64,000 nt of DNA from Leucoraja erinacea (Eukaryota): contig NC_073382.1 of the NCBI RefSeq assembly GCF_028641065.1, forward strand, positions 8,804,001 to 8,868,000. Reading direction: 5' to 3'. A program made the position numbers and the translations under genes. The notes beneath the pieces were generated by a model that saw only the letters and a list, made by a program, of their open reading frames with translations, was not told the DNA's origin and ran no database searches. Shown here piece by piece: positions 1,906 to 41,516 of the stretch. How positions within the stretch are numbered: position 1 is the stretch's first letter; the number at the start of each line of letters is the position of its first letter.

Positions 1906-1975
1906 ATATCTACATTTAAACAAGACTAAAACAACTTTGTTCTTTAAGTTTCCCATAGTAATTTAAATAACCCAC

Positions 1976-2130
1976 CTTCCACCACATCAATCACGCAGAG
2001 GCCCTGGAGAGATGGAACAAGATTCTTTGCTGCAGAATGAACTGCTATTGCTCCCCCCATACTATGGCCAATCAACAGAACTGGGGGAGCATTTGCACCG
2101 TATAGTGTGTTAATTATATCTCCAACATCC
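1976..2130 (-). CDS. PPME1: PPME1 exon 6 (catalytic GHSMGG)
   Basis: Reads DVGDIINTLYGANAPPVLLIGHSMGGAIAVHSAAKNLVPSLQGLCVIDVVEG. CAG acceptor, GTGGGT donor, 155 nt. Confidence 0.97.
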
Positions 2131-4644
2131 CTGTAAAGGAGTAATATATATATATTTTTTTAAATATAAACACATAATCATTCTCAACAAAATTGACTGA
2201 TAGACCATTTCAAACCGTACTATGTCGAGGTGAGTTATCCCATCTTGGTGTAATATACCAAACAGCCTGGTGTCAAGATATTTATCCCAAGGCTGTTCTT
2301 TCAAAATTCAATGCATAAATTGTGTATGTTACATGAATGTGTTAACCTTTAGTGTTAAATGAGTAATCTATAAATAGAACAATTATCATTCAATCCAAGG
2401 CCAAATTCAAGACCTGTTTCATCGACCTCCAGAATTGAAAAGGTGGTTCAGATTTGATAAAAAAGGAAATTAGCATGCTACATTAAATGCAATAAAAAAT
2501 CTTTCGATGCTACGAATAATTTTATGTCTTCACGTTTCGTGCATTTTGATGTAGAGGTAGAAACCAAAGAACTGAATTGATCATATTTCTTTCTGGATTC
2601 TTTAAAAGCTGAAAATCAGTTAAAACTGTTTTTTAGCTAATGAAAAACAACTTTCCAAAAGCTTCTAAAACAGTCAGAAAAGACAGAACTAGCAGATCTT
2701 GCCAAATCAAATTGATCATTTAATACATAAAATTATTTTTAAAATAAATATTGAGAGTAGAAATGAACTGATGCAGATAAAACATGCAGATAAAACATGC
2801 AGACCTAAACCATTTGAAATACATTTTAATTGCCGTTTTTCAGTGCCTAGAATAGGGTTAATTTTGAGTTAATGGAGTACTTTTGCAATGTTGCAGTGTA
2901 TTTCAAATATATAAAAAAATTAGCAATGAGTCATTGGGTATTTTCCTGAAACTAATAGTAGTTTAAATAGCAAGAACTCTGGAATAAATTATATTTATTA
3001 ACTGTTCTATTTTTGATTTTGCAGTAACATTCAACACAAACATCCTTTGGAAGTCCACATATCAATAGAATATACAGGAGTCAGTTGTTTTATTATTTAT
3101 CCATTATCCAAGAGCATCATACTGGCATTTACTGTAGCTATCAGTGTTTTTCATTACATTTTATTTTTCTAATTGCCTGGATAATATTAAACATTTTAAG
3201 GTCTGCTGCATCGAAAACTGATGTAATTAAATATTCAGCCTGAAAGAACACTTTGAAGTGAAAGTATTTTTAATAAGGATGAGAGAATTAAAATTAGGAA
3301 TATTCAATAAACCACAGTCAAGTGCAGCTGACACATTCAAGTCTCAGCTGCAGCTGATAGTTCAGTGTTAAAGGGAATGTGTATATGTGTGTGCGCACAC
3401 ATACGTGTTCACAAAAATAGGTTGCTGAATCAGAGCCAACAATGAGCTTAATGTCAGAAATGATATTTCTCCACCAGCATCTATATTTCAAAAACAGGCA
3501 TTTAGATTGGGATAAAACGTACGTACACAATCCACCTACCCTTATCTGGGTTCAAAATAAACCCAGATTACCAGTGATCATTGCTTCTTTCATATTTGGC
3601 CAATAGAGACCAAAGATCAACAGGTCATCCTCTCATTAAATATCAGCATTTACTTTATTATGATGCAAAAATAACTGATCGCAAAAAAAACCCATAGTAA
3701 ACTAAATTTGAGATAAAAACAAGAAGTCAATCATGTGCATTCGCTTAGTGCCTGCCTTTGCCTCTCTTCTCTCATGCAATGACACTTCCTTTGCAGCACG
3801 ACTCATGACAGGCTACTGAGTTTCAGTGGAGGAAACAATAAATAATAAATCAAATACAAATGAAAGATAAACCTAACCATCTTTGTGCCTGGATCATCAC
3901 CGTCTTAGCTTTGGTAATACAGCTTCAGCTGGCTACTCAGGGGCAAGAGCAAGGGTGCAGTCGAGTGATGTTTAAAAACTACCATTTGTTCCAATGAGGA
4001 ATCACTGACCTGCAATATTATTTAATTGTTTCTCCCTCTCTTCAGATACTGACTAAATTGCTGACTATTTCCAGCAATTTCTGGTTTTATTTTGGAATTA
4101 GAAATAGCAGTTCCCTCTCAGAGGACGGTCGGGATTGGCTCGGTGGCACTACCCTTTTACGTCAGAAATCCTAATAAACTATTGCCGTGCTATTGTAAGA
4201 GGGTGAAAGCCCCTTTATTATAACACTATAAACATAGAAATTGCTACCTTTCAACTTCAGCTCAAGCCTCTTGTGCAGCACAAAGCCATTGACTTATGCT
4301 GGTCGAGAAAGATACAACTACTTTCCAGAGCTACAGCACATATACATCATTAAAATAATAATCAGGCCATAAATAGATGAATAATAGCGGCATGTAGCGT
4401 AAATACTATTTCTATTAATGAGTTTCTATAAATGGCTGCAGGGTGATCAAACGGTGTTGTTAATATGATAACCTGATTCCACAGTTTAGAAAAAACTAAA
4501 TGTTTTACTCTTAATGGGAAAATGCTGTAATAATGTTAAAATTAGAGTTAGAGATTTAATATAGGAACCAATATTGTCACAAAAACTGGAATTCTCTCCT
4601 CTGAACGTCATTGGATTCTGGTTCAATTCAAATATCCAGTACTC

Positions 4645-5005
4645 GGATCCATAGTACAAAATCATGAGAGGAATAGATCGGGTAGATGCACAGGGTCTTT
4701 TGCCCAGAGTATGTGAATCGAGGACCAGAGGACATAGGTTTTAAGGTGAAGAGGAAAAGATTTATTAGGAATCTGAGGGGTAACTTTTTCCACACAAAGG
4801 GTGGTGGGTGTATGGAACAAGCTGCCAGACGAGGTAGTTGAGGCTGGGACTGTCCCAACGTTTAAGAAACAGGTACATGGATAGGACAGCTTTGGAAGGA
4901 TATGGACCAAGCGCAGGCAGGTGGGACTAGTGTAGCATGGACATATTGGCCGGTATGGGCAAATTGGGCTGAAGGGCCTGTTTCCACACTGTATCACTCT
5001 ATGGC
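4645..5005 (+). mobile_element. CR1 LINE 3' fragment
   Basis: Degenerate ..YKIMRGIDRVD..TRGHRFKV..FFTQRVV..WNKLP region, then a 3' tail shared with the SINEs. Confidence 0.85.
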
Positions 5006-5709
5006 TTAGATGTTTTGTTTCTCTTAATAGGCATCAAGAACATGGAGCAAAAGGAAATAAATGGATTTGAAGTAAAGAATAACCATGATCCATCTGAATG
5101 GCATAATAGGCTTGTGGGGCTCAGTGCCCTTCCTATGCCTCTATTGACTACAATGACTGTACTCAGTTGCCAGTAGAATTCTAGAACAAAGCTGAAAAAC
5201 TATTTCACAGTAATAACTGCATTCGAGATTAGCTGTCAAAATTTTTTTTTTTTTTCTGTTTTTATTTTCCCACAACAATTAACAACTAAACTTTGAAACC
5301 AAAATCATAAATATATGAATCCACAGATTATTTTCCTCTCAAAGCTTTGATGTAAATCTAACCATGGAAAAGTAAATAGAAAACTATCTACAGTTTCGGC
5401 CGTGCTAAGTGTGTGTTAGTTATTCATATTATTAAAAGTTTTGCAATCTTTTTGGAACACTTGCATTTCACATTCAAGATGTAACTGCAGAAACTGCTAG
5501 ACAGGATGTAGCTCACAATGGGAGATCTTGTCAACAGATGGAACAGCCCACACACAATAACATTTCACAGGTTGCTGAGGAATTATGATAAGGCCCTAAT
5601 GACCTTGCAGTAACACAGAGGAGGAATGTACTGGTACAAAATAAACAATTTGTAATTTGGTGGCTGAATCATTTACAACATGAAAATAATTACTTTATTG
5701 CCTTTGTAC

Positions 5710-5761
5710 CTGGACATTTTTTCTGCTGAAAGATTATCACTGTCTACGACTTTTGTATCAC
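5710..5761 (-). CDS. PPME1: PPME1 exon 5
   Basis: Reads DTKVVDSDNLSAEKMSR (human ETKVKNPEDLSAETMAK). CAG acceptor, GTACAA donor, 52 nt, phases fit both neighbours. Confidence 0.93.
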
Positions 5762-6349
5762 CTGAAAGATAAATAGGACCTTCAGTTAATGTTTTCATAA
5801 CAGATGGTTTCCTGCCTTCATATTAAATAAATTATGATTTGATCTTGTGCATTTGGCTTATACATTTTCATGAACAGAAAACTACCCATATTACAAACAT
5901 AAGCAAAAAAAAGGAACTATCATGCTTATTTGTAGTAACATCGCTCCAGTATTAATTAGCCTTGCAGAAATCTAGAGCTTTTGACTTAATATGTTCATAG
6001 CAAACAAAAAAAAAGCCATTCAGGCTAGTTCCATCTGCCAGTCCTCAGTCCCTACTCTGGTTGATCATACCACAAATTCTCATCCAGGTACTTTTCAAGT
6101 GTGGGTTTATGCCTTCACCGCACATTTATACGGCGAGTTTCAGACTTCCTGAACTCTGTTTTCCCCATTTAAAAAGAGTTATTATTAAACTTTTACATAT
6201 CACCTTAAACCTATATCAGCCAGTTATTGACCTATCACCCTATCCAAGCATCGCATATTTCACCAACATCAACCAAATCTTCCCTCAGTTCCAAAGAGAA
6301 TAGTTTTTTGTTTTCCTGGCAACATCCTTGCAGATCTCCTCCATACATC

Positions 6350-6950
6350 TTGTGCAAGAAGGAACTGCAGACGCTGGTTTAAACCGAAGATTGACACGAA
6401 AAGCTGGAGTAACTCAGCGCAACATGCAGCATCTCTGGAGAGAAGGAATGTGTGACGTTTCGGGTCAAGACCCTTCCTCAGACTGAGTCAGGGGAGAGGG
6501 AGACAGAGATAAGAAAGTGTAAGGTGTGAAAATGAGACATCAAAACGGATGATGGTCAAGAAAAATGTAGATTTCTTGACCATTGATTGCTAGGAGATGG
6601 TGACAATAACGCATACAGAGATAACATTTAATCGGGAAGACAGTCAGACTGGTTGGAGAACTGGGAAGGGGCAGGGATGAAGAGAGAAGGTAAGCAAGGG
6701 TTACTTGAAGTTAGATAAGTCAATATTCATACTGCTGGGGTGAAATATGAGATGCCGTTCCTCCAATTTACACTGGGCCTCACTCTGACAGTGGAGTTGG
6801 CCCAGGACAGAAAGGTCAGTATGGGAATGGGAGGGGGTTAAAGTGTTTAACAACCGGGAGATCAGATAAGTTTAGGTGGACTGAGCGGAGATATCCAGCG
6901 AAACGATCGCCGAGTCTGCGCTTGGTCTCGTCGATATATAGGAGTCCACA
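6350..6950 (-). mobile_element. Penelope-like element 3' fragment (GIY-YIG C-terminus plus pLTR)
   Basis: Reverse complement encodes ..GLLYIDETKRRLGDRFA..PSHTDLSVLG..KLEERHLIF..GMNIDLSNFK. Confidence 0.85.
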
Positions 6951-7854
6951 CATCAGTAGATGAGATTAAGGCCCGAGGAAAGGTGAAATTTCTTCACTCA
7001 TGGGATTATGAACCTTTAGAATTCCCTAGTTTTCTATTTTTATTTCAGACTGGTCAAAACTTTGTGGTTCTATTTGACCTCAAGCCATGGAACATTCACC
7101 CTGCCATTTCTAAGACAGAACATCTCCATTCCTGTGTCAGTCCAGCTCTTGCTAAACGCTCATCTCGTGCCTGTGCTACATTTAGTTTTTCCAATGTACT
7201 CCTGACCTGCTGTCATTGCAGTACCTACTGCAAACCAGAGGTCATCCAAAGCCACAGCTGGCTAGTTCATGACATTGACCCAATATTGTTCACTTAGAAG
7301 CTAGTAAAATAACACAATAATGTTAAGATTTGCAACCCCATTTTCAAATCCCTTCAAGAGTTTGCCCATTCCTGTCATTGTAAACTCCTCCAAACATACC
7401 AGACAGCTACATTCCTGAGATTGATGTTTATGCTCAAATAGTTTTGCATGTGGCAGCCATGCTTTCAGCTACCAATGTGTCAAGCTCTAGATTTCTCTCT
7501 CTAAACATCACTACCTTTTGACCACTACCTGCTCCTGCAAGAGGCTTCTGATCTGCAAGTCTGCTGATCTGATTATATGTCCAGCCAAAAGTCCTGGGAT
7601 GTTTTGCCAAGGTAAAATGAGCTGCACAAATATGAACATATTTTATTTCTGAAAAAAAGGAATTCTACACTATATTTATGAAAGACTGTTTCCTTTGGAG
7701 CATCGGAGGCTGATGCATGACCTGATAGAAACAAGCATAGGAGGGGTAGATAATCAGAGTCTTTTTCCTTGGGTGGAAATTTCAAAAGCCAGTGAGCATA
7801 GCTCAAAAGGTGACAGCAGGAACATTTTAAGGGAACGTGTGAAGCAAGTTATTT

Positions 7855-8034
7855 TTCTTTTCGGTATTTCGAGGTCGCGGGCAAAATGCGACTTCATGCG
7901 CGCTGGATCGCGTAGTGCACGTGTGAACACAACCCGTTCCGGCACCAGGAACGGCTGCAGCCCGCTCTGGCACGGGGAAATCATCCCACGGGCGGGATTG
8001 AATCCCTTCGCGGGCCACGAGTTTGACACCCCTG
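7855..8034 (+). mobile_element. hAT/Charlie-type MITE right end inside a CR1 tail
   Basis: Ends gagtttgacacccctg (TIR CAGGGGTGTCAAACTC) and is CpG-rich. Left TIR not found. Confidence 0.65.
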
Positions 8035-10174
8035 GATTAAACCATGTGCAGGCAGATGGTATTACTTTAACATAGCATCAGATCAGCACTGTCATTGTGG
8101 GCCAAAGACCCTGTCCTGTGCTGTACTGTTCTATGTATCACATAAGTGAATGGGAGGTAAATTGGCAATTTTACAAGTCACCACAGTAGAACAGAGATGT
8201 TGGTATAATGTAATAATAATTGGTATTATTATTATTATTACACATATGTAATTAGGTTTTTATAACATATCATGTTACACTGCATTACATTATATAATGT
8301 AACATAACATTATGTTAGAAAGTGCCATTGCATCTACCATACCCAAAATGACTAAGTTACCCATTTCTACTTTGCATCTGTGCGGAAGCGCAGAAAATCA
8401 TCAGGTGTTTCAACTTGGATGAAAATGGCATTATGAGTTCAATAAAGGCGATCATTGGGTTACATATGGATTGTTACAGAGAACTTCCCGTAAGCTGATT
8501 TCTCCAATGTCAGAAACATCCATTTTCTGTAGCTACTCATATCGTCTCACTCTCCACCACACACATGCTATAATGCTTTAATTTCATTAAAATTGCACTA
8601 ACATTATCCATAATCAACCCATAATGGATTACACACTGTATATAGTTATTCATTAATAGGATGAAACATTAGTATTGCTCAATTATTGAAAAATGCGTTA
8701 AAAATGTATGGTAAAACTAGCGTTGTCAGATTTCCACTGGTCACCATTGGTAACCCAGGGAGCCCCATGTTATATTTTCTCAGCAGTACAGTTCATAGAT
8801 GCCATGGAGACTTAACCAATGGAGCTGCTGACTCACAGCTCCACTTATCTGGGCTCAAGACTGACCTCTAATGCTGTCTATATGGAGTTTGCACATTCTC
8901 ACTGTGACCATGTGTGCTTCCTCTGGGTGCTCCAGTTTTCTCCCACATTCCAAAGATGTGAATTGGTAGGTTAATTGGCTTCTATAACTTCTTCCTAGCA
9001 TCTATGTGATTGGCAGAATCCGGGAAAAATTGATAAGAATAAGAGGAGAATAAAATGGGATTAGTGTAAATGGATGCTTGACAGTTGACGCAGATGCGAT
9101 GGGCTGAAGGGCCTGTTTCCATACTATATAACTCTATGCCCTTACAGACACCTGGAAATAATTGTCTCCCAAGCCCTGGGAGACAAAACAACTGACTCAA
9201 ACATTGTACATGTTATGGTTTACAAATATTCTGTTCAGCTCTACGTTTTGGGAACATCAAGTCAAAATGTATATGCCTAAGAATATTCACTACTTATCTC
9301 TAAGTCTGAGAGGACATAGTCTATGTTACCATGTTAGCATAGAAAGTTCTAGTGCCAGAATCTCATGTTTTGTTATGCTGTTAAACCGTGTAAAGAAATT
9401 ACTTCAGGGGCGTTTTACGAACTACCGGTTAATGGTGTTTTAAGGATAATGCTTTCCTAAATATACGAGGGCAGCAAGTCAAAAATTGCAGTAGCCTCTG
9501 AACTCATTTCTAGCAGAAACTAAACTGTGAAGGTAGACACAAAATGCTGGAGTAACTCAGGGGGTCAGGCAGCATCTCTGGAGAGAAGGAATGGGTGACG
9601 TTTCGGGTCGAGACCTTTCTTCAGACTAAACTGTGAAATTGGCTCATATTGGCTATTTTCTAAAAGAATAGTTTCTATTAACCAAGAAGCTTAATTTTGT
9701 GTAGTTGAAAATCATTTTGTTTTATGATATAAACAATGTACATATTGCTCTCCGATAGGTTTTGAAGATGAATTCAGAAATATAGCATAAGGTGGCCATA
9801 ACGTCATGGTCTACCACGAAGGATTTGATTTTGCTCCTGACCACATTACTACAAATGTGATATGTCCATAATCCAAGAGATTAGTGTCTTTTAGTACTTT
9901 GTTGTGGATTCGAAAATCGATAGGAGCTGTATAATAAATGATGAGAGCGAGTGGGACCATAAAGTGGGAATACTTGAATAGACATTTGGAGTATACGCAA
10001 GTTTAAGACCGTGTACTAACATTTGTAGTTGGGGGGAGGGGGGGGGCAGAGAGCCAAAGCACAAGGTATACAAGAAAGAAATAATGAATTTAGAGATGCA
10101 GCATGGAAAAAGGCCCTTCGGCCCACCGAGTCCGCACTGATCAGCTAGTTCACGAACACTATCCTACACACTAG

Positions 10175-10628
10175 TGTGAGAAAAGGGTTTATAGGGATGG
10201 TTGAATTATACTAGAACTCTGAAAAATATAACTTAGAAAGAAATTAGCTTATCAGCAGAAGCCAGACTGCTGGTAGAATAAAGTAACAATATACAGAACA
10301 GAGAGAAATTCTAGATAAAAAGTAGCAAACAGATAGAAACTTCAGCAGAAGGCCTTGGGAGTCTTTGACGTCAGGAGATGGTCCGAGACATTCCTGGACT
10401 TTCTCGTGGGAATGTGGGCTTTATGTTATGATTGGACGAAACTCGATGGGGAGACATGAGGTAGTGACCATAGTGAAGAAAAGTATAAAGATAGAAATCA
10501 TCTCCATTTTCTTTGTGCCTCTAGGGGACATCAGAGGAGAGGCACCTATTCTGCAGAATATGAAATTAATAAAAACACTTCTTTGTCTGAATTTGTCTCA
10601 AGAGCATTTGTGATTTTTGAATCTCACA
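10175..10628 (+). mobile_element. Solo LTR (454 bp) inserted into a SINE
   Basis: TGTGAGA...TCTCACA termini and CTAG 4-bp TSD (10171-10174, 10629-10632). TATAAA at 10484, AATAAA at 10568. Removing it restores the SINE sequence cctacacactagggacaatt. Confidence 0.85.
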
Positions 10629-11067
10629 CTAGGGACAATTGACAATTGACAATTTTACCAAACCAATTATCCTACAAACTTATACGCCTTTGGAGTGTAG
10701 GAGGAAACCGGAGCACCTGGGGAAAACCCAGGTGGTCACAGGGAGAACTTTCAAACTACGTACAGACAGCACCCGCAGTCAGGAACGAACCCGTGCCTCT
10801 GGTGCTGTAAGGCAGCAGCTCTATTGCTACGCCACTGTGCTGCCTACTAAACACAGGGAAGCACAGTCTCAGAGAAGGATCTGAATCAATGAAAACTTAT
10901 AGATGTTCCTAAAAAGAATCAGATCCACTGTGTTCTTAAAAGTGATGAAACATGAATAAAAATATAAAGCCATACTAGTTTAAAAAGAAACAAAATGGAG
11001 GTTTCTTTATCAAACCTAATGACAAATATTTTTAGCAGCTAGAATAATATATATTTTTTATCAGAAG

Positions 11068-11524
11068 GTAGACAAAAATGCTGGAGAAACTCAGCGGGTG
11101 AGGCAGCATCTATAGAGCGAAGGAAATAGGTGACGTTTCAGGTCTCGACCCTTCTTCAGACTGATGTGGGGGTGTGGGGGGGCGGGAAGAAAGAAGGAAG
11201 AGGCGGAGACAGTGGGCTGTGGGAGAACTGGGAAGGGGAGGGTAAAGGAGAAAGGAGAAAGCAGGGACTACCTGAAATTGGAAAAAATCGTCCCTGCTTT
11301 CTCCTTTCCACTCCCCTTCCCAGTTCTCCCACAGCCCACTGTCTCCGCCTCTTGCTTTCTTCTTCCCACCCCCCACCCCCCACATCAGTCTGAAGAAGGG
11401 CCTCGACCTGAAACGTCACCTATTTCCTTCGCTCCATAGATGCTGCCTCACCCACTGAGTTTCTCCAGCATTTTTGTCTACATTCGATTTTCCAGCATCT
11501 GCAGTTCCTTCTTAAACATTAAAT
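11068..11524. mobile_element. Inverted pair of Penelope pLTRs (~200-bp arms)
   Basis: Arms 11068-11268 and 11290-11481 are near reverse complements with a 21-nt loop. Direct repeat ttttttatcagaag at 11054-11067 and 11525-11538. Confidence 0.85.
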
Positions 11525-11557
11525 TTTTTTATCAGAAGTTAGTTTAAATGAACTTAC

Positions 11558-11615
11558 CATGGCCTCGCAGGTCTACTGCCACAACTCTGCATTTAACACG
11601 ACTGATAATCAAGGA
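11558..11615 (-). CDS. PPME1: PPME1 exon 4
   Basis: Reads SLIISRVKCRVVAVDLRGHG. CAG acceptor, GTAAGT donor, 58 nt. Confidence 0.96.
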
Positions 11616-13342
11616 CTGTAGTCAAAAATAACAGATCATCAAAGTTATATAAACTAATAAGTCACATCGCAATAACTCTTTATCTACAAATAAACATCTT
11701 CCAGAAAGATTAAAAATTTAATCTTTTATTCCAAATTTTGAAATTTCAGTATCAATTTTTGGTGAAAAATTACTTCATGGCAAGAAGAAATGGCAATAAA
11801 TTTTGTTGTTCGAATGTTGCCACCATTCTGGGATAAAAACATTCACCTACTTAAACGTGTTTAATGTTCCATTATGTATAATGTTGCAATTACATTGTTA
11901 TTATGGTAAATTCAGCACTAAACATCATGAGTTCGCACACTGATAAATAAGCCGTGCCACCTTCTTTCCCATCCCTTCTGCATGCACTGATCCATGCATT
12001 GCTACTGCTAACTATGAAGTATCACAACAGTTATTAAAAACTATGAAAATATCAAAAAGCCAAACCTTGCCCTGAGAGAATTTACTCTTTTCAGTTTAGG
12101 TTAGCACAGTCTGATTCATGATGGCTATCTCATTGGTGTTTTATAATCATTCAGCAATTCAGCATTGCTTCACTGCTTTCACATTCTGTGCCTCTATTGA
12201 TAAAACCCCAAATTACGCAAGCCTTATTAACAGGTTTCGCAACCAACTCCTGTAATTTTCTTCAATTCTTGCACTAAATATCTGGGATTCTGCACCCCTT
12301 TTAGTTTAATTTAGTTTAGAGAAAGCAGGGAGTCCGTGCCGACCAGCAATCCCTGCTCATTAACACTGCCCAACACATATTAGGGAAAATTTACACATAT
12401 ACCAAGCCAATTAACCTACAAACCTGTAGGTCTTTGGAGTATGGTATGAAACCGAAGATCTTTGGAGAAAACCTACGCGGTCATGGGGAGAACGTAAAAC
12501 TCCGCTCAGACAGCACCCATAGTTGGGATTGAACCCGGGTCTCCGGTGCTGCAAGGCAACAACTCTACCGCTGCACCACCGTGCCAAATTACATTTCGGA
12601 CAAATCCTTCCTCGTTTATTTCATCTCAATCAACATCAAAATTAACCACTTCACATTGCACTTCATCTGCAATACACTGCCCATTCCACCCGTTTGTTTT
12701 ATCACCGTAACCCATTACTGTTCTTTTTGCAGTTCACACAGCTGCCAAATTTAGTGGCATCCAGTAATTTACAAAAGGCATAAAGGTTTCACATGTGGAA
12801 ATCAAATTGTTAATCCAACACAAATTTTGGTCATAAAGAGGCAGAATAAACAATATTTATCTCAGTCCCTATTATGATGCATCAAATTTAGGACCTAAAT
12901 TTCATTAGTCAGAGAACCAAGAGAGAGTGTTTTATTGTCATATGTCCCAGACGGGACAATGAAATTCTTACTTGCTGTAGCACCCATTAGTAAAAAGCAA
13001 AGAAAATGCAAGATAAGTGCAGGGCCAGTTTTGTAAACAGCAAATTTCCTAAATGGTATTCATTCTCCAGTCCCACTAACACAGAACAATCAGTTGGAGA
13101 TACTAAGAGGTATGTAGTGCTATTGAATTTTAGGCCAACCTTCTGAAGAAAGCAAAGATTTTATTCTTATTAAAACATGCAAGCACAAGCACAGAAATGT
13201 GAAACGTAACAGGAATTAAATCACAGAATATATTGAAATAATCTTAAAATAATCATAATTTTACTTGTCGGTATACAAAGATATTTGGCCAATTTCACTT
13301 TAAACAACAACCAATTTCCTTTTAAAATTTGCAATTACTTAC

Positions 13343-13435
13343 AGAAAAAACTGCCCAGGAGAGGGCTGAATGGCCTCCTCCATGTAATAATAAAAGGACA
13401 GGTCCTTCAGATCCACTTTTGTAGATTCGAAAAGA
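13343..13435 (-). CDS. PPME1: PPME1 exon 3
   Basis: Reads SFRIYKSGSEGPVLLLLHGGGHSALSWAVFS, with the alpha/beta-hydrolase HGGG motif. AC acceptor, GTAAGT donor, 93 nt. Confidence 0.97.
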
Positions 13436-13853
13436 GTACATGTAGTTAAGGTTTACATGCAAAATATAAAAAAGCATATAAGGGTTAAAGGATAATGTAT
13501 AATATCCTCTAAATATGGCCAGATTAAAATAGCCTCATTGTCTATCACAACAACATTTGTAACCTTGCTAGTGTTATACATTTTTTACATTAGATTGAAG
13601 ATGATCAAAGGATAGGAGAGGGGGTGAAACATATCCCCTCGTGGAACATATTTTCAAGTTGGTTTTAAAAATAATAAAAATATGAACCAACCTCAAGACT
13701 TTTAATGCTGATGGAGACAACGTTATTTTATGTTGTGGGACACAAAATAAATCTAGAAATGCAACCAATAAGCTAAACTGAATTCCTGATCAAGACCAGA
13801 CTTATATACGAACGTACAGGCCTTGTAGTGCACTGGAATTTTATAAAGGATAT
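13436..13853 (-). other. PPME1: U12-type AT-AC intron (PPME1 intron 2, 418 nt)
   Basis: 5' end ATATCCTTT. Branch site CCTTAAC (13451-13445) ends 9 nt before the 3' end. Terminal AC. Flanking exons join in frame. Confidence 0.95.
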
Positions 13854-13947
13854 ATCTTTACTTTTTCCCCTCTTAATTATGACATCTTCCATTGTTTCAA
13901 AATAATGATTCCAGGGCACTGGTGAGAAGTCCCGTTTTCTTCCAGGG
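13854..13947 (-). CDS. PPME1: PPME1 exon 2
   Basis: Reads PGRKRDFSPVPWNHYFETMEDVIIKRGKSKD. TAG acceptor, 94 nt, followed by the U12-type donor ATATCCTTT. Confidence 0.96.
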
Positions 13948-15494
13948 CTATAACAAAAGGGACATTAAACATTAGTTAAAGATAGCCATCAATAATCTAT
14001 GTACAATTTTAGAACATATTTCCTTTGGGGAAATCACAACATGTCAGTTCTGTATGTTTCCGATTCATTATTTGTAGGTATCCGGTGAGAAAGGTAAATT
14101 AGGAGGGCTAACCAGCTGTTCCAGTAGAAAATATCACTTTGTTGCACAGTACTTAAAGCAGAAAACTGCAGAGATTGAAGACCCAAAACAAAAGCTAAAT
14201 ACTAGAAGCACTCAGCAGATCAAGCAGCAACATTGGAGAGAGAAACAGTTAGCAAACCAGGTTGTGGTTATCAGAATTTTCACAATGAAAGATCAAAAAT
14301 AAACTAGGCATGGGAGAGAGAATTAACAATGGCAGATAAGGACAACTAAGCATCCAATTAATTTTCACTTTAATTCCCTATCCCACCCCCATTCTAACCG
14401 CTCTGTCGTCAGCAAGTGGACTGTGAGAAAGACCACACAGCAATCAAGGAATTAAAATGAAAGGGAAAAACATTTTTTTAATCACTTTTATGGCATATTC
14501 ATGACTGCTCACATCAGGGGTTCACATCAGGAGATAATATAATTCCCTAACTGAAAGAGAACCAAACAATCATTACTGAGTACTGAGAGAGATTACTATA
14601 TCAAAATTATTTTGCATGGCATTAAATTGTGAAAATGCATCTAGCAGGAGAGAAGGAGAGAGGAACAGAGATATTTGCAGTGGATTGCCTTTCATCAGAG
14701 AAAGTTACGTAACTTTTTCATTTTTTCTATTCCAACTAACACTTTGTCTCCATGCTATCAATTACTTTTTTTCCTTTTTCTCTGCCCTCCTATTTGCTCT
14801 TCCATCCTCTATTTTCCAGTTCTGATGCAAAGTTGTTAATAATAAACAGTGTTTATTTCTCTCGCCCGAGATTACTCTGCTGAATAATTCCAGCATCTGG
14901 AGTATATTGCTTTTGAATTATTACTTGGCATGGTACTGGATGGGTCAGCAAACCATCCATTCACTTCTAAGACCAAGATTCCAACGCACGAGAACCTTCT
15001 AATTCTGCTGACTATAAATACCCTGTAAAATTTTGATTTGTTTGCACTCAACCAACTTCTTTCTGAGATGTCAACAGAATAAAATTTCCTTTAGATTAGT
15101 TGAGGAAAATTGGCCAAAGGGTTGATTGATAAGGGAAAATGGGCAAACAAATAAATGACTAATTAAAACAAATTAGTCATATGTGGGTTTAGTGTTGGGA
15201 TTAGTGACCTTGATGACAATTTGGCCATGAATCAGACTGAAATAGGGATGATTCTCATTGGTCAGTATTTGCACACGAACCCCGACTCACCATAAATACT
15301 ACTACATGCTATTTCATGGCAAACTAGTACTTGGTTCTATTTCAACCAGCAAGCAGTGTATAGAAGATGACACATGGCATCCATTAATGAAACTGTACCA
15401 ACACACTGAAATTCCATTGCCTTCTTAAAATAAAGCATTTATGAAAACAGATTCTAGTCGTTTAATCAAATATGTTACTGATATTAATCTAAGA

Positions 15495-22400: not shown

Positions 22401-23128
22401 CAGGATAATCTTAAAAAGCTACACTTTATAGCAAAGATGCTCTGTAAAATAATAGTTAATTCAAATATTGAATTCCAAAGAAAGTGCAATTATTGAACTT
22501 GAAATAATGATGTGTTTAGATTATATCAGATGATCGACTGGGTGCACACCAAATATCAAATAATGAAAAAGCAATCAGATAGCCAACTAACAACATGTCT
22601 AAGTAAAACAATAAAATGTAATGGTCAGTGTACAAAGAATATAATACAGAAAATCAGGTGAACAATTATGTACACATAATCATAACAACTCATAACTAGC
22701 CAAGTCTTTCCTCCCCACAGTCTAATGTCAGATCGTATAATTTGTAGTCATCAAAACACTGAACACACATTTTCTACTTACGCTTAACAATTAAAAACAC
22801 GACACATTACTTTAAAAAGGAAGAAAACGTTAGTAACCTTATATTTCATATTACAAATAGAAACTGTAATCAATAGATAAGACCGACTTAAACTTGCACT
22901 GCCTTTTACACCTGCATTTATGCAAGATACATAAAATGAAGAAACCCCCTGAAGTTTAAATATGTTGCTGCTATTTGCTTGAGACTTTGGTTGCCAAAAT
23001 GAACCAAACTGCAAAATTGATCAGTTATTACTGGTTCAACATCTCCAATGACTGGAGACGCGGTCCGTCAGAAAATAAATGAAAAAAAAATCAAGGTCTA
23101 GATTTGAAAAGATAGTTTGCACACTCAC

Positions 23129-23223
23129 CCCATCCTCATTTTGGACCCCGTCTGAAGACCTGGCCGCATCGGTGGTCGTGAAGGCAATTTACTCAAGAAC
23201 AACTCTTTCTCTAAAGAAGACAT
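23129..23223 (-). CDS. PPME1: Protein phosphatase methylesterase 1, coding exon 1
   Basis: Minus strand reads MSSLEKELFLSKLPSRPPMRPGLQTGSKMRMG, similar to human MSALEKSMHLGRLPSRPP...KMRMG. ATG at 23223, GTGAGT donor, 95 nt, phase 2. Confidence 0.96.
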
Positions 23224-23289
23224 TTTTTCAGATGCATGGAGGAAAAGAAAATTAAGTTAATGGTGGACCCGTTTGATGTTACTGCTGTT

Positions 23290-23650
23290 AAGAAGCGGCC
23301 GCTCCCCCTCTGTGCGTTTATACTACATAAGGTGTTTCAAATGATGATTAGCAGGAAAATCATTAAATATATTTTTAAATCCCTTCTCCGGTCCTGAAGA
23401 TGGCCTACACCGATAGGAAGACGGTTATTGCTCATGGGCCTTGGTGCCGGGACTTGTAGTCCTACCAGTCCATTTTGTGAGGCAATTGCATTTTGGATCT
23501 TCAACATTAAACTACATTCTCCATGAAAGCGATCGTGAATGATGTAATGGTTGGGAAGAGGCAGCTCCTCAAGCAATGTCTACCAGGCTTTCTGGGAGTT
23601 GTAGTCAACATGTGGTTCCGGCGCGCCGTTGCTAACGTTACCAATTTGAA
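23290..23650. promoter_or_regulatory. PPME1 promoter with two ZNF143/SBS-type motifs and an RFX X-box match
   Basis: Minus-strand GACTACAAGTCCCGGC (23446-23461) and GACTACAACTCCCAGA (23591-23606). Minus-strand GTAACG-TT-AGCAAC (23628-23641) fits GTNRCN-N(0-3)-RGYAAC. Local CpG enrichment just upstream of the ATG. Confidence 0.75.
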
Positions 23651-30394: not shown

Positions 30395-31055
30395 AAATAT
30401 TGCAGATGCTGGATATTTGAAATATAAAATCAGAAAATACTAGAAACACTCAGCAGGTCAAACAGCATCTGTGGACAGGTTCGTTACCCAAGCGCAGATC
30501 AAGAACCAAGCACAGGATCGGCAACCATTTCGCTGAACACCTCCGCTCAGTCCGCCTAAACCTCCTTGACCTCCCGGCTGCTCAACACTTTTAACTCCCT
30601 CTCCCACTGTCCTGGGACACCTCCACTGTCAGAGTGAGGCCCAGCGTAAATTGGAGGAACCGCACCTCATATTTCGCTTGGGCAGCTTACACCCCAGTGG
30701 TATGAATATTGATTTTTCTAACTTCGAGTAACCCTTGCTATCCCTCTCTCTATAGCCTTCCCCTTCCCTAGTTCTCCGGGCAATCTTACAATCTTTAACT
30801 GTCCTCGATTAAAATGTATCTTTGTATGCTCTGTTGTCACCTTATCCTAGCTAACGATACGATACAATTTTATTCAATGATCTATTCTACATTTTCCTTG
30901 AATTGCATCTCCTTTGATATCGTTTTCACACCTTACACTCATCTCTGTGTCTCCCTTCCCCCTGACTTTCAGTCTGAAGAAGGGTCTGGACCCGAAACGT
31001 CACCCATTCCTTCTATTCAGAGATGCTGCCTGTCGCCCCAGCATTTTGTGTCTAT
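30395..31055 (+). mobile_element. Penelope 3' fragment with pLTR
   Basis: ..HFAEHLRSVR..KLEEPHLIFRLGSLHPSGMNIDFSNF, followed by the pLTR. Confidence 0.8.
30971..31005 (+). ncRNA. Candidate minimal type I hammerhead ribozyme core in a pLTR (representative copy)
   Basis: CUGAAGA-A-GGGUC UG GACCC-GAAAC-GUC. The conserved boxes and a stem II are present; stem III is vestigial and stem I weak. Confidence 0.5.
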
Positions 31056-31194
31056 TAACGGAGTTAGAATATCAGCTCAGACGCCCTTCGTTAGACCTGG
31101 TGAAACGCGCTGCCCATTCCTTCAGTTCCGATCAACAGTCTTTGTCGCGAAACGTCAACTGTTCTCCCCAAAACCCCCGCCTCCTTGCTTTGCT

Positions 31195-31700
31195 GGTCCT
31201 CCGGCATCCCATTGGCCGCTCGTCCCGTTCCTCCGGTATCCCATTGGACGCTCGTCTCTGGTCTTCCGGTATCCCATTGGATACCAGTTACAGGACCTCC
31301 CATTGGACGATCCTCGCTGGTCCTCCCTCATCTCATTGGATACCCGTCGCTGGTCCTCCCTCATCTCATTGGATACCCGTCGCTGGTCCTCCCTCATTCC
31401 ATTGGACGATCTTCGCTGGTCCTCCGTCATCTCATTGGATACCCGTCGCTGGTCCTCCCTCATCCCATTGGACGCTGGTCGCTGATCCTCATCCCATTGG
31501 ACGACAGTTCCTGGTGCTCCCTCATCCCATTGGACGCTGGTCGCTGATCCTCATCCCATTGGACGACAGTTCCTGGTGCTCCGTCATCCCATTGGACGGT
31601 AATTACTGGTCATGCTATTGGACGTCAGTTTCTGGTCCTCTGTCAACCCATTGGACGCCAGTTACTGGTCCTCCGTTGTCGTATTGGACGCTCGTTGCTG
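31195..31700 (+). repeat. CpG-rich minisatellite, modal 33-bp unit, one ATTGG (inverted CCAAT box) per unit, 16 units
   Basis: ATTGG starts at 31211, 31243, 31276, 31302, 31335, 31368, 31401, 31434, 31467, 31496, 31529, 31558, 31591, 31617, 31650 and 31683. Confidence 0.93.
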
Positions 31701-31751
31701 GGTATCCGTCATCCTCTGGTAACCCGCGCGCGGCTGGCGGGCTGGCTGGCA

Positions 31752-31766
31752 CGCGGCGCGTTTGAA
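31752..31766 (+). promoter_or_regulatory. CDE/CHR tandem element in the C2CD3 CpG-island promoter
   Basis: CGCGG, a 4-nt spacer, then TTTGAA. It lies about 180 nt upstream of the ATG and just downstream of the CCAAT array. Confidence 0.7.
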
Positions 31767-31943
31767 AGCCGAGTCCGTTGCCCGGGAGCTCGTTTTGTAC
31801 ACAGATCGCTGGCGGCTGTTGGTCCTCCGCTGTCCCGGCGTGCAGAGCGGCCACCGTCCTTCCGCAACCCACCCGGAGTGCGCGGGCAACCAGGTTCAAA
31901 CTATTCCAATCATCGACATGCACTGGAAAACCACGGAGCAACA

Positions 31944-31992
31944 ATGAAAACCAGGAAACCAAAAACTGCAAAACTGGGAAAGAAAAAGAAGC
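31944..31992 (+). CDS. C2CD3: C2 domain-containing protein 3, coding exon 1
   Basis: acaATG start, reads MKTRKPKTAKLGKKKK(R), similar to the basic human N-terminus MKQRKGQG...RKKR. GTAAGT donor; phase 1 matches exon 2. Confidence 0.88.
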
Positions 31993-32214
31993 GTAAGTGC
32001 GGATTTCCCCCTTTCTGGAGAAGGATCTCGACCTGAAATGTCACCAATTACTGAGATGCTGCCCAAAGATCACAGAGCGGAGCTGACCCGATGAGTTACT
32101 CTATCTTCGGTTTACTAAACCAGCACCTGCAGGTCATTCTTACACGTTTCCCCTTTTAGTGTGTGTTTAACCATTGATTCTTTAGGCCTTGTGAATTAAT
32201 GTATGTCAAACATA

Positions 32215-32380: not shown

Positions 32381-32470
32381 TAGAAACATAGAATATGCAG
32401 GTGTAGGCCATTCGGCCCTTCGAGCCAGACTGCCATTCAATATGATCATGCCTGATCATCCATAATCAAT

Positions 32471-33180
32471 AGGGTGATTTCACGAAAGGTCACTGGAGCG
32501 CAGATCCGCACCCACGTGACCGAAAATCTCAAGTGGAGGACATGCTAGACATCCGGTACATGTTAGTGGATGGGAAAACACGCACTTTCCCACCCGTTAA
32601 AAACATAGAAAACGGCCAGGTTTTGATCTGCAATTTATTGTGCCAGATTGTGTTATTGTGCCAGATTATGTTAAAAACATAGAAAACGGCCAAGTTTTGA
32701 TCTGCAATTTATTGTGCCGGTCGGGGTGACCGTGAGGCACAGCTACCTAGATTTACAATTTAAAAAAAAGATAGAAACTAAGGTAAATTAAAGAGGGAGC
32801 TGAGGCATTATTGACTTACTTTTGATGAAATTCAGCGAGAAAACGCGATAATTCCCGATATTTTGGACCTTTAAATCTCCACGGCAAATGTCCGCTGTTC
32901 ACTTCCGCTAGATTGGCACCTTCAGCTCCCTCTTTAATTTACCTTAGTTTTTATCTTTTATTTTTATTGTAAATCTAGGTAGCTGTGCCTCACGGTCACC
33001 CCGACCAGCACAATAAATTGCAGATCAAAACTTGGCCGTTTTCTATGTTTTTAACGTGTGGGAAAGTGCGTGTTTTCCCATCCACTAACATGTACCGGAT
33101 GTCTAGCATGTCCTCCACTTGAGATTTTTGGTCACGTTGGTGCGGATCTACGCTCCAGTGACCTTTCGTGAAATCACCCT
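32471..33180. mobile_element. Foldback MITE (710 bp, ~270-bp TIR core), possibly ISL2EU/PHIS type
   Basis: Begins agggtgatttcacgaaaggtcactggagcg and ends cgctccagtgacctttcgtgaaatcaccct, with AT on both sides. Inserted in a CR1 tail. Confidence 0.85.
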
Positions 33181-33296
33181 ATAGCCAGTTCCTGCTTTCT
33201 CCCCATATCTGCAGTTCTTTCCTACACATTCTCCCCATATCCCTTGATTCCTTTAGCATTAAGAGCTAAATCTAACTCTCTCTTGAAAACATTGAA

Positions 33297-37545: not shown

Positions 37546-38388
37546 AATTTGTCTTATTCTGTCTATTCATAGATTAGAATTCTCAGTGATAACCATATTA
37601 CTTCTGTAACACTTAATTTTTTTTTTCATTTACACAATGCCCAATATTTGTTTCTCCAAAAGTGCTTCCTGACAGCTAAGAATTTTAACATTTTAATGAT
37701 TTATTCCTTTGATTTCAGCACATTTATATTTAAATAGTTTTAGTAACATAACATGAAAATGTATGTAGGGCAACGTTAGAGAGGACTTGTTTCTTTGTTT
37801 GGATTGTGTTACCATTCTTATTAAGATGTACAATATACCCTCATATTTTCCTGTGTTGCATTTTGCCTGCTACGTTTCTGTCTGTTCCACTATCTTATTT
37901 TGTTTGCTGAACAACACGTGTCTAATATTATTAGCACATTAATAAGAAGCACATATTGCAGGATGGAAAATGTGCTTATTAATTCTTGTCCATTCATCAC
38001 ATTTTTGTTTCATTCTAAGTACAATGTAAAACTTGTTCATTGCTCTTGGTTAATTTTCCTACTTTCTCCAAAATGATGATCAACATGGTCATAAAATGAC
38101 TTCAGGACAGTTGCATATATAAATATTTTAACATTATGACATTCATAATTCATCTTTCACTGCTCCTCAGCATCAATTAATCTGCAACCAGTAGTATTTT
38201 ACCGTATGGTACTTGCCATGTGATATTTTCAACTGCCAAAGGTTTAAGCTTGTGGGAGATAATATCTTCAATTTGAAATTATTTAATATGTTGATTATTA
38301 CTGATAATATTTTGTATGCAACTGATATTTTTTGTATGCAACTGATAACACTATGAGACAGACACCATAACATTAATTATGTTTACAG

Positions 38389-38658
38389 GAATAAGTGACG
38401 TCCTACCATCTACAAGTCTGCCACCGCTGGTTGACGGTCAGATTCGATGTTTTCTAAGGATAACGGTCAGTAAAATCCTGTGGATCATTCTCAAACCACC
38501 AGTAGCCCCTCTTGTTAGACTGCGCTGGTGGGGTGAAACTTCCAATGGCACTTTGTTTCACCCAAGAGATTCTTCGCATTCTGAACCAAAATCTGTGAAA
38601 ACTACTGCTCGATATGCTGTTCGCTGTGGACCAAGACAGTTCACTTCTTACCTTGCAG
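38389..38658 (+). CDS. C2CD3: C2CD3 exon 2 (N-terminal C2-like domain)
   Basis: Reads [26 protein letters not shown]...[19 protein letters not shown]...[19 protein letters not shown] acceptor, GTTAGT donor, 270 nt. Confidence 0.97.
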
Positions 38659-38719
38659 GTTAGTTTCCAATATTATTAATTTTATTTAACTATATCTGCA
38701 AGTTTTCAGTTTTCCTACA

Positions 38720-39830: not shown

Positions 39831-39991
39831 GGTGTCCGAGGTTGTAGGTTTTGATGTTCCCAGAGATCAGCTACTCTTGCACATGCAGATGTGTATTTTT
39901 CATTTCTCGATTAATGTTTGTCCAGTAGCGCAACTGCTAAAACTAGTTTTATATTTACAAAGTTTTTTTTTTCATCTTTTTAATATGATAG

Positions 39992-40149
39992 ATATGGGAG
40001 TGCTGGTATTGGAAGTGTTGACAAAGGCTGACCATCTTCCCATTGGTCGAGTTCAAATAAATGGAATTTCACAACTATCATCCACGTATGAAATTAGTGG
40101 ATTTTTCACAATGATTTCACCTACCTCGGAGAAACTTGGAGAACTACAG
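39992..40149 (+). CDS. C2CD3: C2CD3 exon 3
   Basis: Reads [56 protein letters not shown] acceptor, GTTAGA donor, 158 nt. Confidence 0.97.
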
Positions 40150-41516
40150 GTTAGAAATGCTATTTGCCTTGGTACGTTTGATTAAGAAATGTGGTATTAA
40201 AGTTTGTCCTTACTTGGCAAATAAAATTTCATGATTATTTATTTAATTCAGGAAATAACCGCGCAAACAATCTTTTTTTTCCCAATACTTTTTTCTGCTT
40301 GCTGATTTCCAAAGTAACTTTTAAGTGGTACTCTAATTCCCAATTAAACTCAAGATGGACAGATCCTTTCCCAATCAAACACACTGTATAACTAATTTGG
40401 ACCCGCACAAAAAAACAGATGGTATTCCCTATTTCATAAATCATGTTATATCCAATTAGTGTAATGAAATAGTGCATTATAGCAAAGCCAAGTACACGGG
40501 CAACCAGTTTGGTGGAAGATGAATAAATTATTATGGTGTCACATGTTATCTCATGCAAATGTGAATTGATGTTTATTGCAACCATCATTGCCTATCAGAG
40601 CATCGAGTGTGCTTGAATTTGCTTAGCTGGGGTTGTTTCCAAACAGATGGGTGGTGAGAGGACAAAAAAATGTAAAGGGTATGTTTTAATCAAGGTATTT
40701 AAAACAGAGGCCTAAACAGAGTAAACAGGAAAGGCCCACTCCCCTTTACAGAATAACCAGTTACAAGTAGAAGCGGTGGTGAAGAGTTGGGGAAAATTGT
40801 TTTGACCCAAATTGTGATGAGGGTTTGGAACTTGCTTCCTGAAGAGAGTGACTCAGTCACAGCATCTTTAAAAAGAGCAAAAGCAAAGTAAGGATTCTGG
40901 AAGCGATACCTGCGGAAGCAGTAGAATCTCATAATCGATAAGGCTATATGTAGAGTTCTTGGATATCTAGACCTCTCCTTTTGTGCTGTAAATATGTATG
41001 ATTCCACAATGCAGTTTGAACCGAGTAGTTTTCAGATATTGTCACCAGTATAATAAAGGGGAAAAAATTCAGACAGAGTAATACCTAAAAGTGATTTGTT
41101 TTTGAGGGAAGTAAAATATGTTGGCCTATAGTGTCATTTGTGGATCATTTGGCAACATCCATTCCCGAGTCAGGATGTGACTTGAGCATAAAAATCAAAA
41201 CTGCAATTCCATCATACTGCTGAGGACATGCTTCCCTGTTGTAGTTTTTTTGGGGGGGGCAAGATGTTAACCCAAAGCTTCATCTCCATCAAGTGGATTA
41301 AAAAAAAATATTCATGCTTGTGGTTTCACTTCATGAAGTATTTCATTGGCTGCAAAACATTGAATGAAAAATGTGAAAGACTTTTAAAGTGTGCATGTCT
41401 ACTTTAGTGCATTATTCATCTGTTATTTCATTCCCTACAGTGTGCAACAAAAATATTATGTGTTACATTTGCTGACCATTTACGTTCACTTGTGTTGTTG
41501 TTGAAATGATTTGAAG

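Follow-up and report, generated by a model that had tools for sequence, protein, structure and literature searches.

The window analysed here, a stretch of 64,000 nucleotides of skate DNA, contains a close series of 16 ATTGG, the CCAAT box read from the opposite strand, upstream of the gene C2CD3. The locus raises the question of how such a series arose and what it does. The original prediction was that a cell-cycle promoter module of C2CD3 had been amplified into a minisatellite.

The CCAAT boxes are carried by a single-locus minisatellite

The 16 ATTGG lie on the same strand at 31211, 31243, 31276, 31302, 31335, 31368, 31401, 31434, 31467, 31496, 31529, 31558, 31591, 31617, 31650 and 31683. 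Their number and strand agree with the original prediction, as do all 15 spacings from one ATTGG to the next (32, 33, 26, 33, 33, 33, 33, 33, 29, 33, 29, 33, 26, 33 and 33 bp; 33 bp in 10 of the 15). The 64-kb window has 96 ATTGG, or one per 667 bp, as against 16 within 477 bp at the array. This clustering is explained by a tandem repeat with a period of 33 bp, for which TRF gave 12.8 copies with a 72% match at 31192-31598 and a further block at 31615-31691. Alignment of the units gave the following features of the array, which lies in a CpG island:

31183..31719, no strand: 33-bp minisatellite of 17 units of 26-33 bp, defined by unit alignment, with CCAAT read on the minus strand in 16 of the 17 units
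31211..31215, minus strand: the outermost box, the sole one in which −2 and −1 are both purines
31314..31550, no strand: the homogenised centre of the array, with near-identical units arranged as two-unit blocks (66 and 62 bp) and a likely variable copy number
31688-31719: the 17th unit, in which the box is lost (unit alignment)
31001..32000, no strand: CpG island, the single one within window positions 1-34000 by the cut-offs used

In a search of the 2.19-Gb genome that skips very common words, the array was matched once. The 17-base core of the unit had six matches inside the array and four lone matches elsewhere without arrays, compared with two control matches, and no look-alike of the array was found among the other scanned genomes. 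Two other identities for the repeat were tried and rejected. A dispersed repeat, which the original prediction had named among the outcomes that would count against it, does not fit the single genome match, the lone core matches and the absence of BLAST likeness to other loci. A coding repeat (33 bp would be 11 codons) is at odds with the 26-, 29- and 32-bp units, which shift the frame, and with the RNA records, none of which lies on the array. The array is a single-locus 33-bp minisatellite, and the predicted amplification of a CCAAT module is supported to this extent. It is a head-to-tail repeat with units in the 10-60 bp range, confined to one locus and placed, judging from sparse RNA data, at a transcription start region; by its sequence it qualifies as a promoter minisatellite.

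The array fills the gap between PPME1 and C2CD3

The array fills the gap between two head-to-head genes, PPME1 on the minus strand and C2CD3 on the plus strand, for which we assigned these exons:

31726..31992, plus strand: first exon of C2CD3, with the most upstream read ends at ~31726 and ~31741, the ATG at 31944 and the donor GT at 31993
38389..38660, plus strand: exon 2 of C2CD3 (N-terminal C2 domain, PF25339), spliced to exon 1 in a contig of run X18
31089..31186, minus strand: transcribed stretch, the inferred non-coding first exon of PPME1, from five same-ended reads of one run
23127..23223, minus strand: putative first coding exon of PPME1, with the ATG at 23223
1947..13964, minus strand: further PPME1 coding exons, in open frames at 13776-13964, 13325-13450 and 1947-2159

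The identification of C2CD3 in the original prediction is borne out by matches to PF25339, the N-terminal C2 domain of C2CD3, in the frames at 38388-38660 (E = 1.3e-31) and 39985-40182 (E = 1.2e-15), as well as by the RNA contig that joins exon 1 to exon 2. The ATG begins a short first coding exon, 177 bases 3' of the CHR described below. The prediction of a C2CD3 promoter was correct in that C2CD3 lies downstream of the array, but the divergent gene was missed, and the gap is common to PPME1 too. The exon at 23127..23223 is putatively assigned to PPME1 by its likeness to the human N-terminus. Two PPME1 exons match the human PME-1 chains in PDB entries 3c5v, 3c5w and 7soy (E = 8e-21 and 9.5e-15). 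The start codon of PPME1 is 8 kb from the CpG island, which implies an untranslated first exon and a long first intron, and several candidate acceptors lie at 23282-23462. The human genes are also head-to-head, with starts 303 bp apart according to the portion of Table S3 of PMC4176359 that covers them, and a passage of PMC3428666 describes C2CD3 and PPME1 as adjoining in tetrapods.

The introns of C2CD3 contain other repeats. A MITE-like element with long inverted ends, recognised by eye, lies at 32463-33183 of the window in intron 1. Two similar blocks of ~1.5-2 kb, at 57760-59310 and 44377-46424, carry near-identical open frames, and each runs into a masked stretch.

Sparse RNA reads lie on both sides of the array

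Four RNA or likely-RNA runs were placed on 31055-32015, using 1-5% of three of the runs and reaching a depth of ~1-5. None of the 24 RNA records that fit this interval touches the bins 31187-31714, although an array empty of RNA is weak evidence because the coverage is thin. On the C2CD3 side, the plus-strand reads start at ~31726, ~31741 and ~31767, as worked back from the bin depths, and in these sparse data C2CD3 reads start 40-55 bp past the last box. The transcription start had been predicted at 31770-31800, and this did not hold, since the reads reach ~31726-31741, upstream of that interval.

On the PPME1 side, five minus-strand reads of run X23 extend from 31186 to 31089 with identical ends and possibly represent one molecule; at this thin coverage, none of the minus-strand reads at 31089-31186 connects to the coding exon of PPME1, which is 8 kb distant. 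Base 31186 is an A preceded by a C, and A after C is the usual initiator context. A few minus-strand reads were also observed at 31913-31978. Most single-cell reads fit partially, and we infer that adapter is present at their 5' ends. A promoter common to PPME1 and C2CD3 is likely.

The number of units likely varies

We compared the assembly with contigs from four DNA runs: X3, labelled as the same organism; X4 and X10, from organism B; and X15, from organism C. The difference concerns one two-unit block:

31489..31550, no strand: 62-bp two-unit duplication, present in the assembly and absent from the X3, X4, X10 and X15 contigs, and so known from the assembly alone

In X3, X4 and X10, the right-hand contig begins with 15 letters equal to 31412-31426 and continues at 31489, which is the junction expected if the 62-bp duplication is absent. 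In X15, a loose end equal to 31396-31415 joins at 31511, and 95 bp are skipped. The junctions of all four runs skip the duplication, and none of the runs has a contig that spans the array. The depth of the central contig, which is not a copy number, was 2.2-2.9 times that of the flanks in three of the four runs, where the reference predicts 1.43, and 1.08 times in X15, where 1.53 is expected, with the same limit on its meaning. The contigs of the four samples without the 62-bp duplication indicate that the unit number likely varies, as the original prediction had supposed, and the centre of the array appears likely to gain and lose two-unit blocks.

Large CCAAT ladders occur elsewhere in the genome

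Two sets of loci were sampled from the same genome. One comprised 97 loci from the top of the list of 321 matches to a 12-mer favoured by NF-Y, and the other comprised 36 loci at a second motif, TCTCGCGAGA. Near-duplicate matches were dropped (2 and 5 among the first returned loci), and further adjacent ones were not fetched twice. The second motif was not enriched over its control (129 vs 374 matches), and unique CpG islands were found at 9 of its 36 loci. With a ladder defined by gaps of up to 60 bp, the 28 unique CpG-island loci of the 12-mer set had ladders of 1-2 boxes in 22 cases, 3-4 boxes in 4 and 7 boxes in 2. Minisatellites were found in 4 of 37 unique CpG islands and 2 of 84 other loci, a difference that is not significant (P = 0.07).

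Ladders of 8-27 boxes were present at four other loci, two of which (L206 and L207) are clusters chosen by eye from matches with C at −1:

L155, 375-887 (G000:C10:5319800 onward): 14 ATTGG in 513 bp
L067 and L209: 8-box ladder of 34/93-bp units, in a CpG island that is present twice as a whole, ~3 kb apart
L206, 1492-1913 (G000:C3:54007000 onward): 41-bp minisatellite of ~10.6 copies with 11 boxes
L207, 1069-2243 (G000:C42:173500 onward): 27 ATTGG in 1.2 kb, with nested 161- and 445-bp repeats

The spacings at L155 (30, 33, 29, 33, 29, 33, 62, 33, 97, 30, 33, 29 and 41 bp) show a 33/29 alternation like that of the array, in unrelated sequence; 29 and 33 add up to 62 bp, about six helical turns. 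The first exon after this ladder presumably resembles endophilin B (SH3GLB), and its 21 residues gave no Pfam match. Each unit at L206 contains a CCAAT box and most contain a CACGTG E-box, and the repeat ends ~70 bp 5' of the start codon in an exon of the Tom5 family (PF10642). The L207 spacings are rich in 31, 41, 73 and 82, and downstream of this ladder lies a minus-strand exon that we take to resemble an RBM4-type RNA-binding protein. By BLAST, none of the four loci resembles the unit of the array. With 16 boxes, the array is at the high end of the ladders in this genome, and it is not unique. The unrelated ladders at several loci, one of them with the 33/29 alternation, suggest that repeat-built promoters may be common in skate genomes. 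A smaller ladder at L159:759-955 has six ATTGG in 25-31 bp steps with TTTGAA 12 bp on, and is a candidate textbook CCAAT/CHR promoter.

A common redundant NF-Y promoter is the favoured reading

We consider it rather probable that the array between PPME1 and C2CD3 is their common, redundant NF-Y promoter, for which NF-Y binding and activity are predicted. Slippage or unequal exchange would have multiplied one ordinary CCAAT unit of an ancestral bidirectional promoter. NF-Y would occupy several of the boxes, keep the ~540-bp gap open and confine initiation to its two edges. Most weight would fall on the older, outer units close to the starts, and gains or losses of central units would matter little. 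As a separate, putative layer, the CDE/CHR at the start of C2CD3 may act as a cell-cycle brake on that side alone.

A passage of PMC6624317 describes NF-Y as holding the region upstream of starts nucleosome-free and guarding against ectopic initiation. From this work and from the mouse Mrps12/Sars2 promoter we infer a similar role for NF-Y at the array, with the number of boxes presumably inflated by tandem duplication, for which ABO and TRIB3 offer parallels. The array is probably functional, its predicted function being that of a multi-CCAAT bidirectional promoter.

CDE-like and CHR sites at the C2CD3 start

The cell-cycle part of the original prediction concerns two sites between the array and the ATG:

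31752..31756, plus strand: CDE-like CGCGG, whose first base is G in organisms B and C
31761..31766, plus strand: canonical CHR TTTGAA, four bases past the CDE-like site, unchanged in all four DNA runs

The predicted CGCGG-N4-TTTGAA was correctly described, being 64 bp past the last box, where ~65 bp had been given, and followed by the ATG. In the G2/M module proposed from it, the NF-Y array activates, a DREAM/MuvB-bound CDE/CHR represses C2CD3 outside S/G2/M, and the unit number tunes the level. We regard this as possible, though doubtful.

Both sites fall within the zone of C2CD3 read starts, with TTTGAA lying 20-35 bp within the reads that reach furthest upstream. The constancy of the CHR between the DNA runs speaks for the module, as does the single change in the CDE-like site, from C to G at the first base, which keeps SGCGG. 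A strict CDE-CHR pair occurred in 0.018% of simulated 200-bp pieces; a bare TTTGAA, however, is common, being found in 21% of the same kind of pieces and at 7 of 37 sampled CpG-island loci, and the six-letter CDE pattern as given in PMC4176359 fails at 31751, which is an A. The genome-wide count of CDE-CHR matches (2433 vs 262 in the control) is uninformative because one 15-mer, belonging to a repeat family, is shared by most of the 100 matches listed. This CpG-rich dispersed family (L012-L041), with a perfect CDE-N4-CHR 15-mer, makes up most of the genome-wide matches listed. The CKS promoters, intended as a positive control, had a CpG island in none of four loci.

Among three close organisms the CHR does not differ. 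On the C2CD3 strand of the human promoter lies TTTGTA, which is conserved, is validated as a CHR variant according to a passage of PMC4176359 and is putatively homologous to the skate site. The same passages count the centriole genes CEP152, SASS6, POC5 and PLK4 among the CHR genes and report that a CHR acts on a single gene of a head-to-head pair, but the entries of Table S3 of that paper give DREAM 0000 for human C2CD3, with no MMB or FOXM1 entry and no cell-cycle peak, and C2CD3 is not in its Table 1. C2CD3 also has no occurrence in PMC5729532. The part of PMC3287175 on cyclin B2 reports that a spacing of ~33 bp is conserved, but also that DREAM binding does not require the CCAAT boxes. None of the four other loci with large ladders has an adjacent TTTGAA, which indicates that the array needs no cell-cycle explanation, and nothing ties unit number to output. 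The array is a candidate rather than an established member of the CDE/CHR class, and G2/M control is hypothetical.

The boxes look conserved in a changing array

An unlikely reading is that the array is a largely neutral minisatellite, in which function is confined to the 1-3 boxes closest to either start and the remaining units are repeat debris; the apparent conservation of the boxes would then reflect homogenisation and the selection of the example. On a tree of the 16 box-bearing units, the 53 parsimony changes all lie outside the five columns of the box (P = 0.0002; P = 0.004 for any five-column window), and column permutation gave P = 0.00035 for the box columns and 0.015 for any window. 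When the 17th unit is added, 2 of 58 changes fall in the box columns (P = 0.005; any window, 0.11), and column permutation gave P = 0.006 for the box columns and 0.14 for any window, so that neither any-window value is significant with all 17 units. These tests are partly circular because the boxes served both to delimit the units and to pick out the array. ATTGG had been predicted to be invariant, which is true of 16 units; the 17th has lost its box, and four further single columns of the 33-bp unit are also invariant in the unit alignment.

In a more independent comparison, between samples, 24 sites are variable in ~299 array bases and none within the 45 box bases (P = 0.017, or 0.053 when clusters are merged to 18 events); this scoring left out the central units because the contigs break there. 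Organism C differs from the assembly at 18 of the 299 bases of the array and at 11 of 369 in the flanks. This faster change of the array than of its flanks fits neutrality, and so does the apparent freedom with which central units come and go. Against neutrality, the five box letters are kept in diverged outer and inner units alike, and the four internal unit deletions of 4-7 bp all spare the box and leave spacings of at least 26 bp. The boxes look conserved, being spared by the sequence change around them, and these comparisons offer moderate evidence that selection may act on them.

Box geometry is compatible with NF-Y and most −1 bases are disfavoured

All boxes are intact pentamers on the same strand with spacings above 24 bp, the minimum distance between neighbouring NF-Y trimers reported in a passage of PMC4982600. 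The peak at 31 bp in that work is not directly comparable with the array spacings because its distances are edge-to-edge, as stated in its Methods. The boxes had been predicted to be phased, which is correct between neighbours but not for the array as a whole: 33 bp is 3.14 helical turns and 26 bp is 2.48, and the 16 boxes share no helical face, the resultant being 0.04-0.43 for periods of 10.0-11.0. This feature, too, fits a neutral minisatellite.

Favourable NF-Y flanks have purines at −2 and −1 and S-R after the box. In the array, a purine is present at −2 in all 16 boxes and at −1 in one, and the 3' flank fits in 14. The disfavoured T is found at −1 in 15 of the 16, compared with 6 of 54 other boxes at CpG-rich CCAAT loci in the genome, where −1 is A or G in 40. 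The flanks are thus as suboptimal on the 5' side as had been predicted, and many boxes may bind NF-Y weakly, a further point for the neutral reading. Genome counts by the −1 base were 505 for T (control, 42), 117 for C (control, 41) and 321 for the favoured form (control, 19); the count for T is uninformative because most of the 20 loci read belong to a few repeat families, and the favoured-form matches are also partly repeats (9 of 37 CpG-rich loci). No published passage on NF-Y flank affinities was found in the literature searched. Neutrality of most units also has a parallel in ABO, where alleles without three NF-Y repeats can have normal transcript levels (a passage of PMC7187371).

A transposon or LTR enhancer remnant that brought in a ready-made CCAAT array, as in human LTR12/ERV-9, is very improbable and already weakened: LTR12 does contain NF-Y-bound CCAAT repeats (passages of PMC3730095 and PMC4982600) and our genome search omits very common words, but the array and its unit core gave the single match and the few lone matches described above, the other fetched loci have no BLAST likeness to the array, and the array sits in the PPME1/C2CD3 gap, which is conserved.

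Significance and relation to known systems

As a common redundant NF-Y promoter, the array would be a natural NF-Y dosage series, with many boxes, likely length variants and two outputs. A broader scheme, speculative and improbable when taken as a whole, is that cartilaginous fishes routinely tile core promoters over 0.4-1.2 kb with tandemly amplified CCAAT modules, whose NF-Y sites recur at spacings of 29+33, 31 and 41 bp, that a copy-variable 16-box tile powers PPME1 and C2CD3, and that the one-sided CDE/CHR puts C2CD3 alone under cell-cycle control, unlike in human. Repeat-built CCAAT promoters in elasmobranchs were not found in the literature searched, a scope that excluded most subscription journals.

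The closest tested model for the array is mouse Mrps12/Sars2, in which four same-strand boxes drive both genes, the outer set giving direction and the middle being accessory (passages of PMC1802594). Both systems have same-strand CCAAT boxes between two divergent genes. In contrast to the array, Mrps12/Sars2 has four boxes in less than 200 bp, these passages describe no tandem repeat, and NF-Y binding is demonstrated there, whereas the array is known from its sequence. Cyclin B2 shares the ~33-bp spacing and a TTTGAA four bases past a GC-rich site near the start, but has three boxes as well as proven DREAM/MMB binding and a G2/M peak, which human C2CD3 is not scored as having (passages of PMC3287175 and PMC4176359).

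Among repeat-built elements, the CBF/NF-Y minisatellite enhancer of human ABO also consists of tandem units that each contain a CCAAT box. Its units are copy-variable and NF-Y-bound, and the effect of their copy number is disputed; it has one or four 43-bp units ~3.8 kb upstream, whereas the array has 16 boxes in units of 26-33 bp in the gap between two head-to-head genes (passages of PMC7187371). The VNTR of the human TRIB3 promoter likewise has a 33-bp unit with a factor site, tandemly multiplied in one lineage, but the site is of C/EBP-ATF type, the copies number 1-5 and a dosage effect is demonstrated (PMC7425993). The E3 repeats of LTR12/ERV-9, ~14 in tandem and each CCAAT-bearing, are NF-Y-bound and belong to a dispersed retroviral element, unlike the single-locus array (passages of PMC3730095 and PMC4982600). 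The principle of promoters built from repeated CCAAT boxes or other factor sites is already known from ABO, TRIB3, LTR12 and Mrps12/Sars2.
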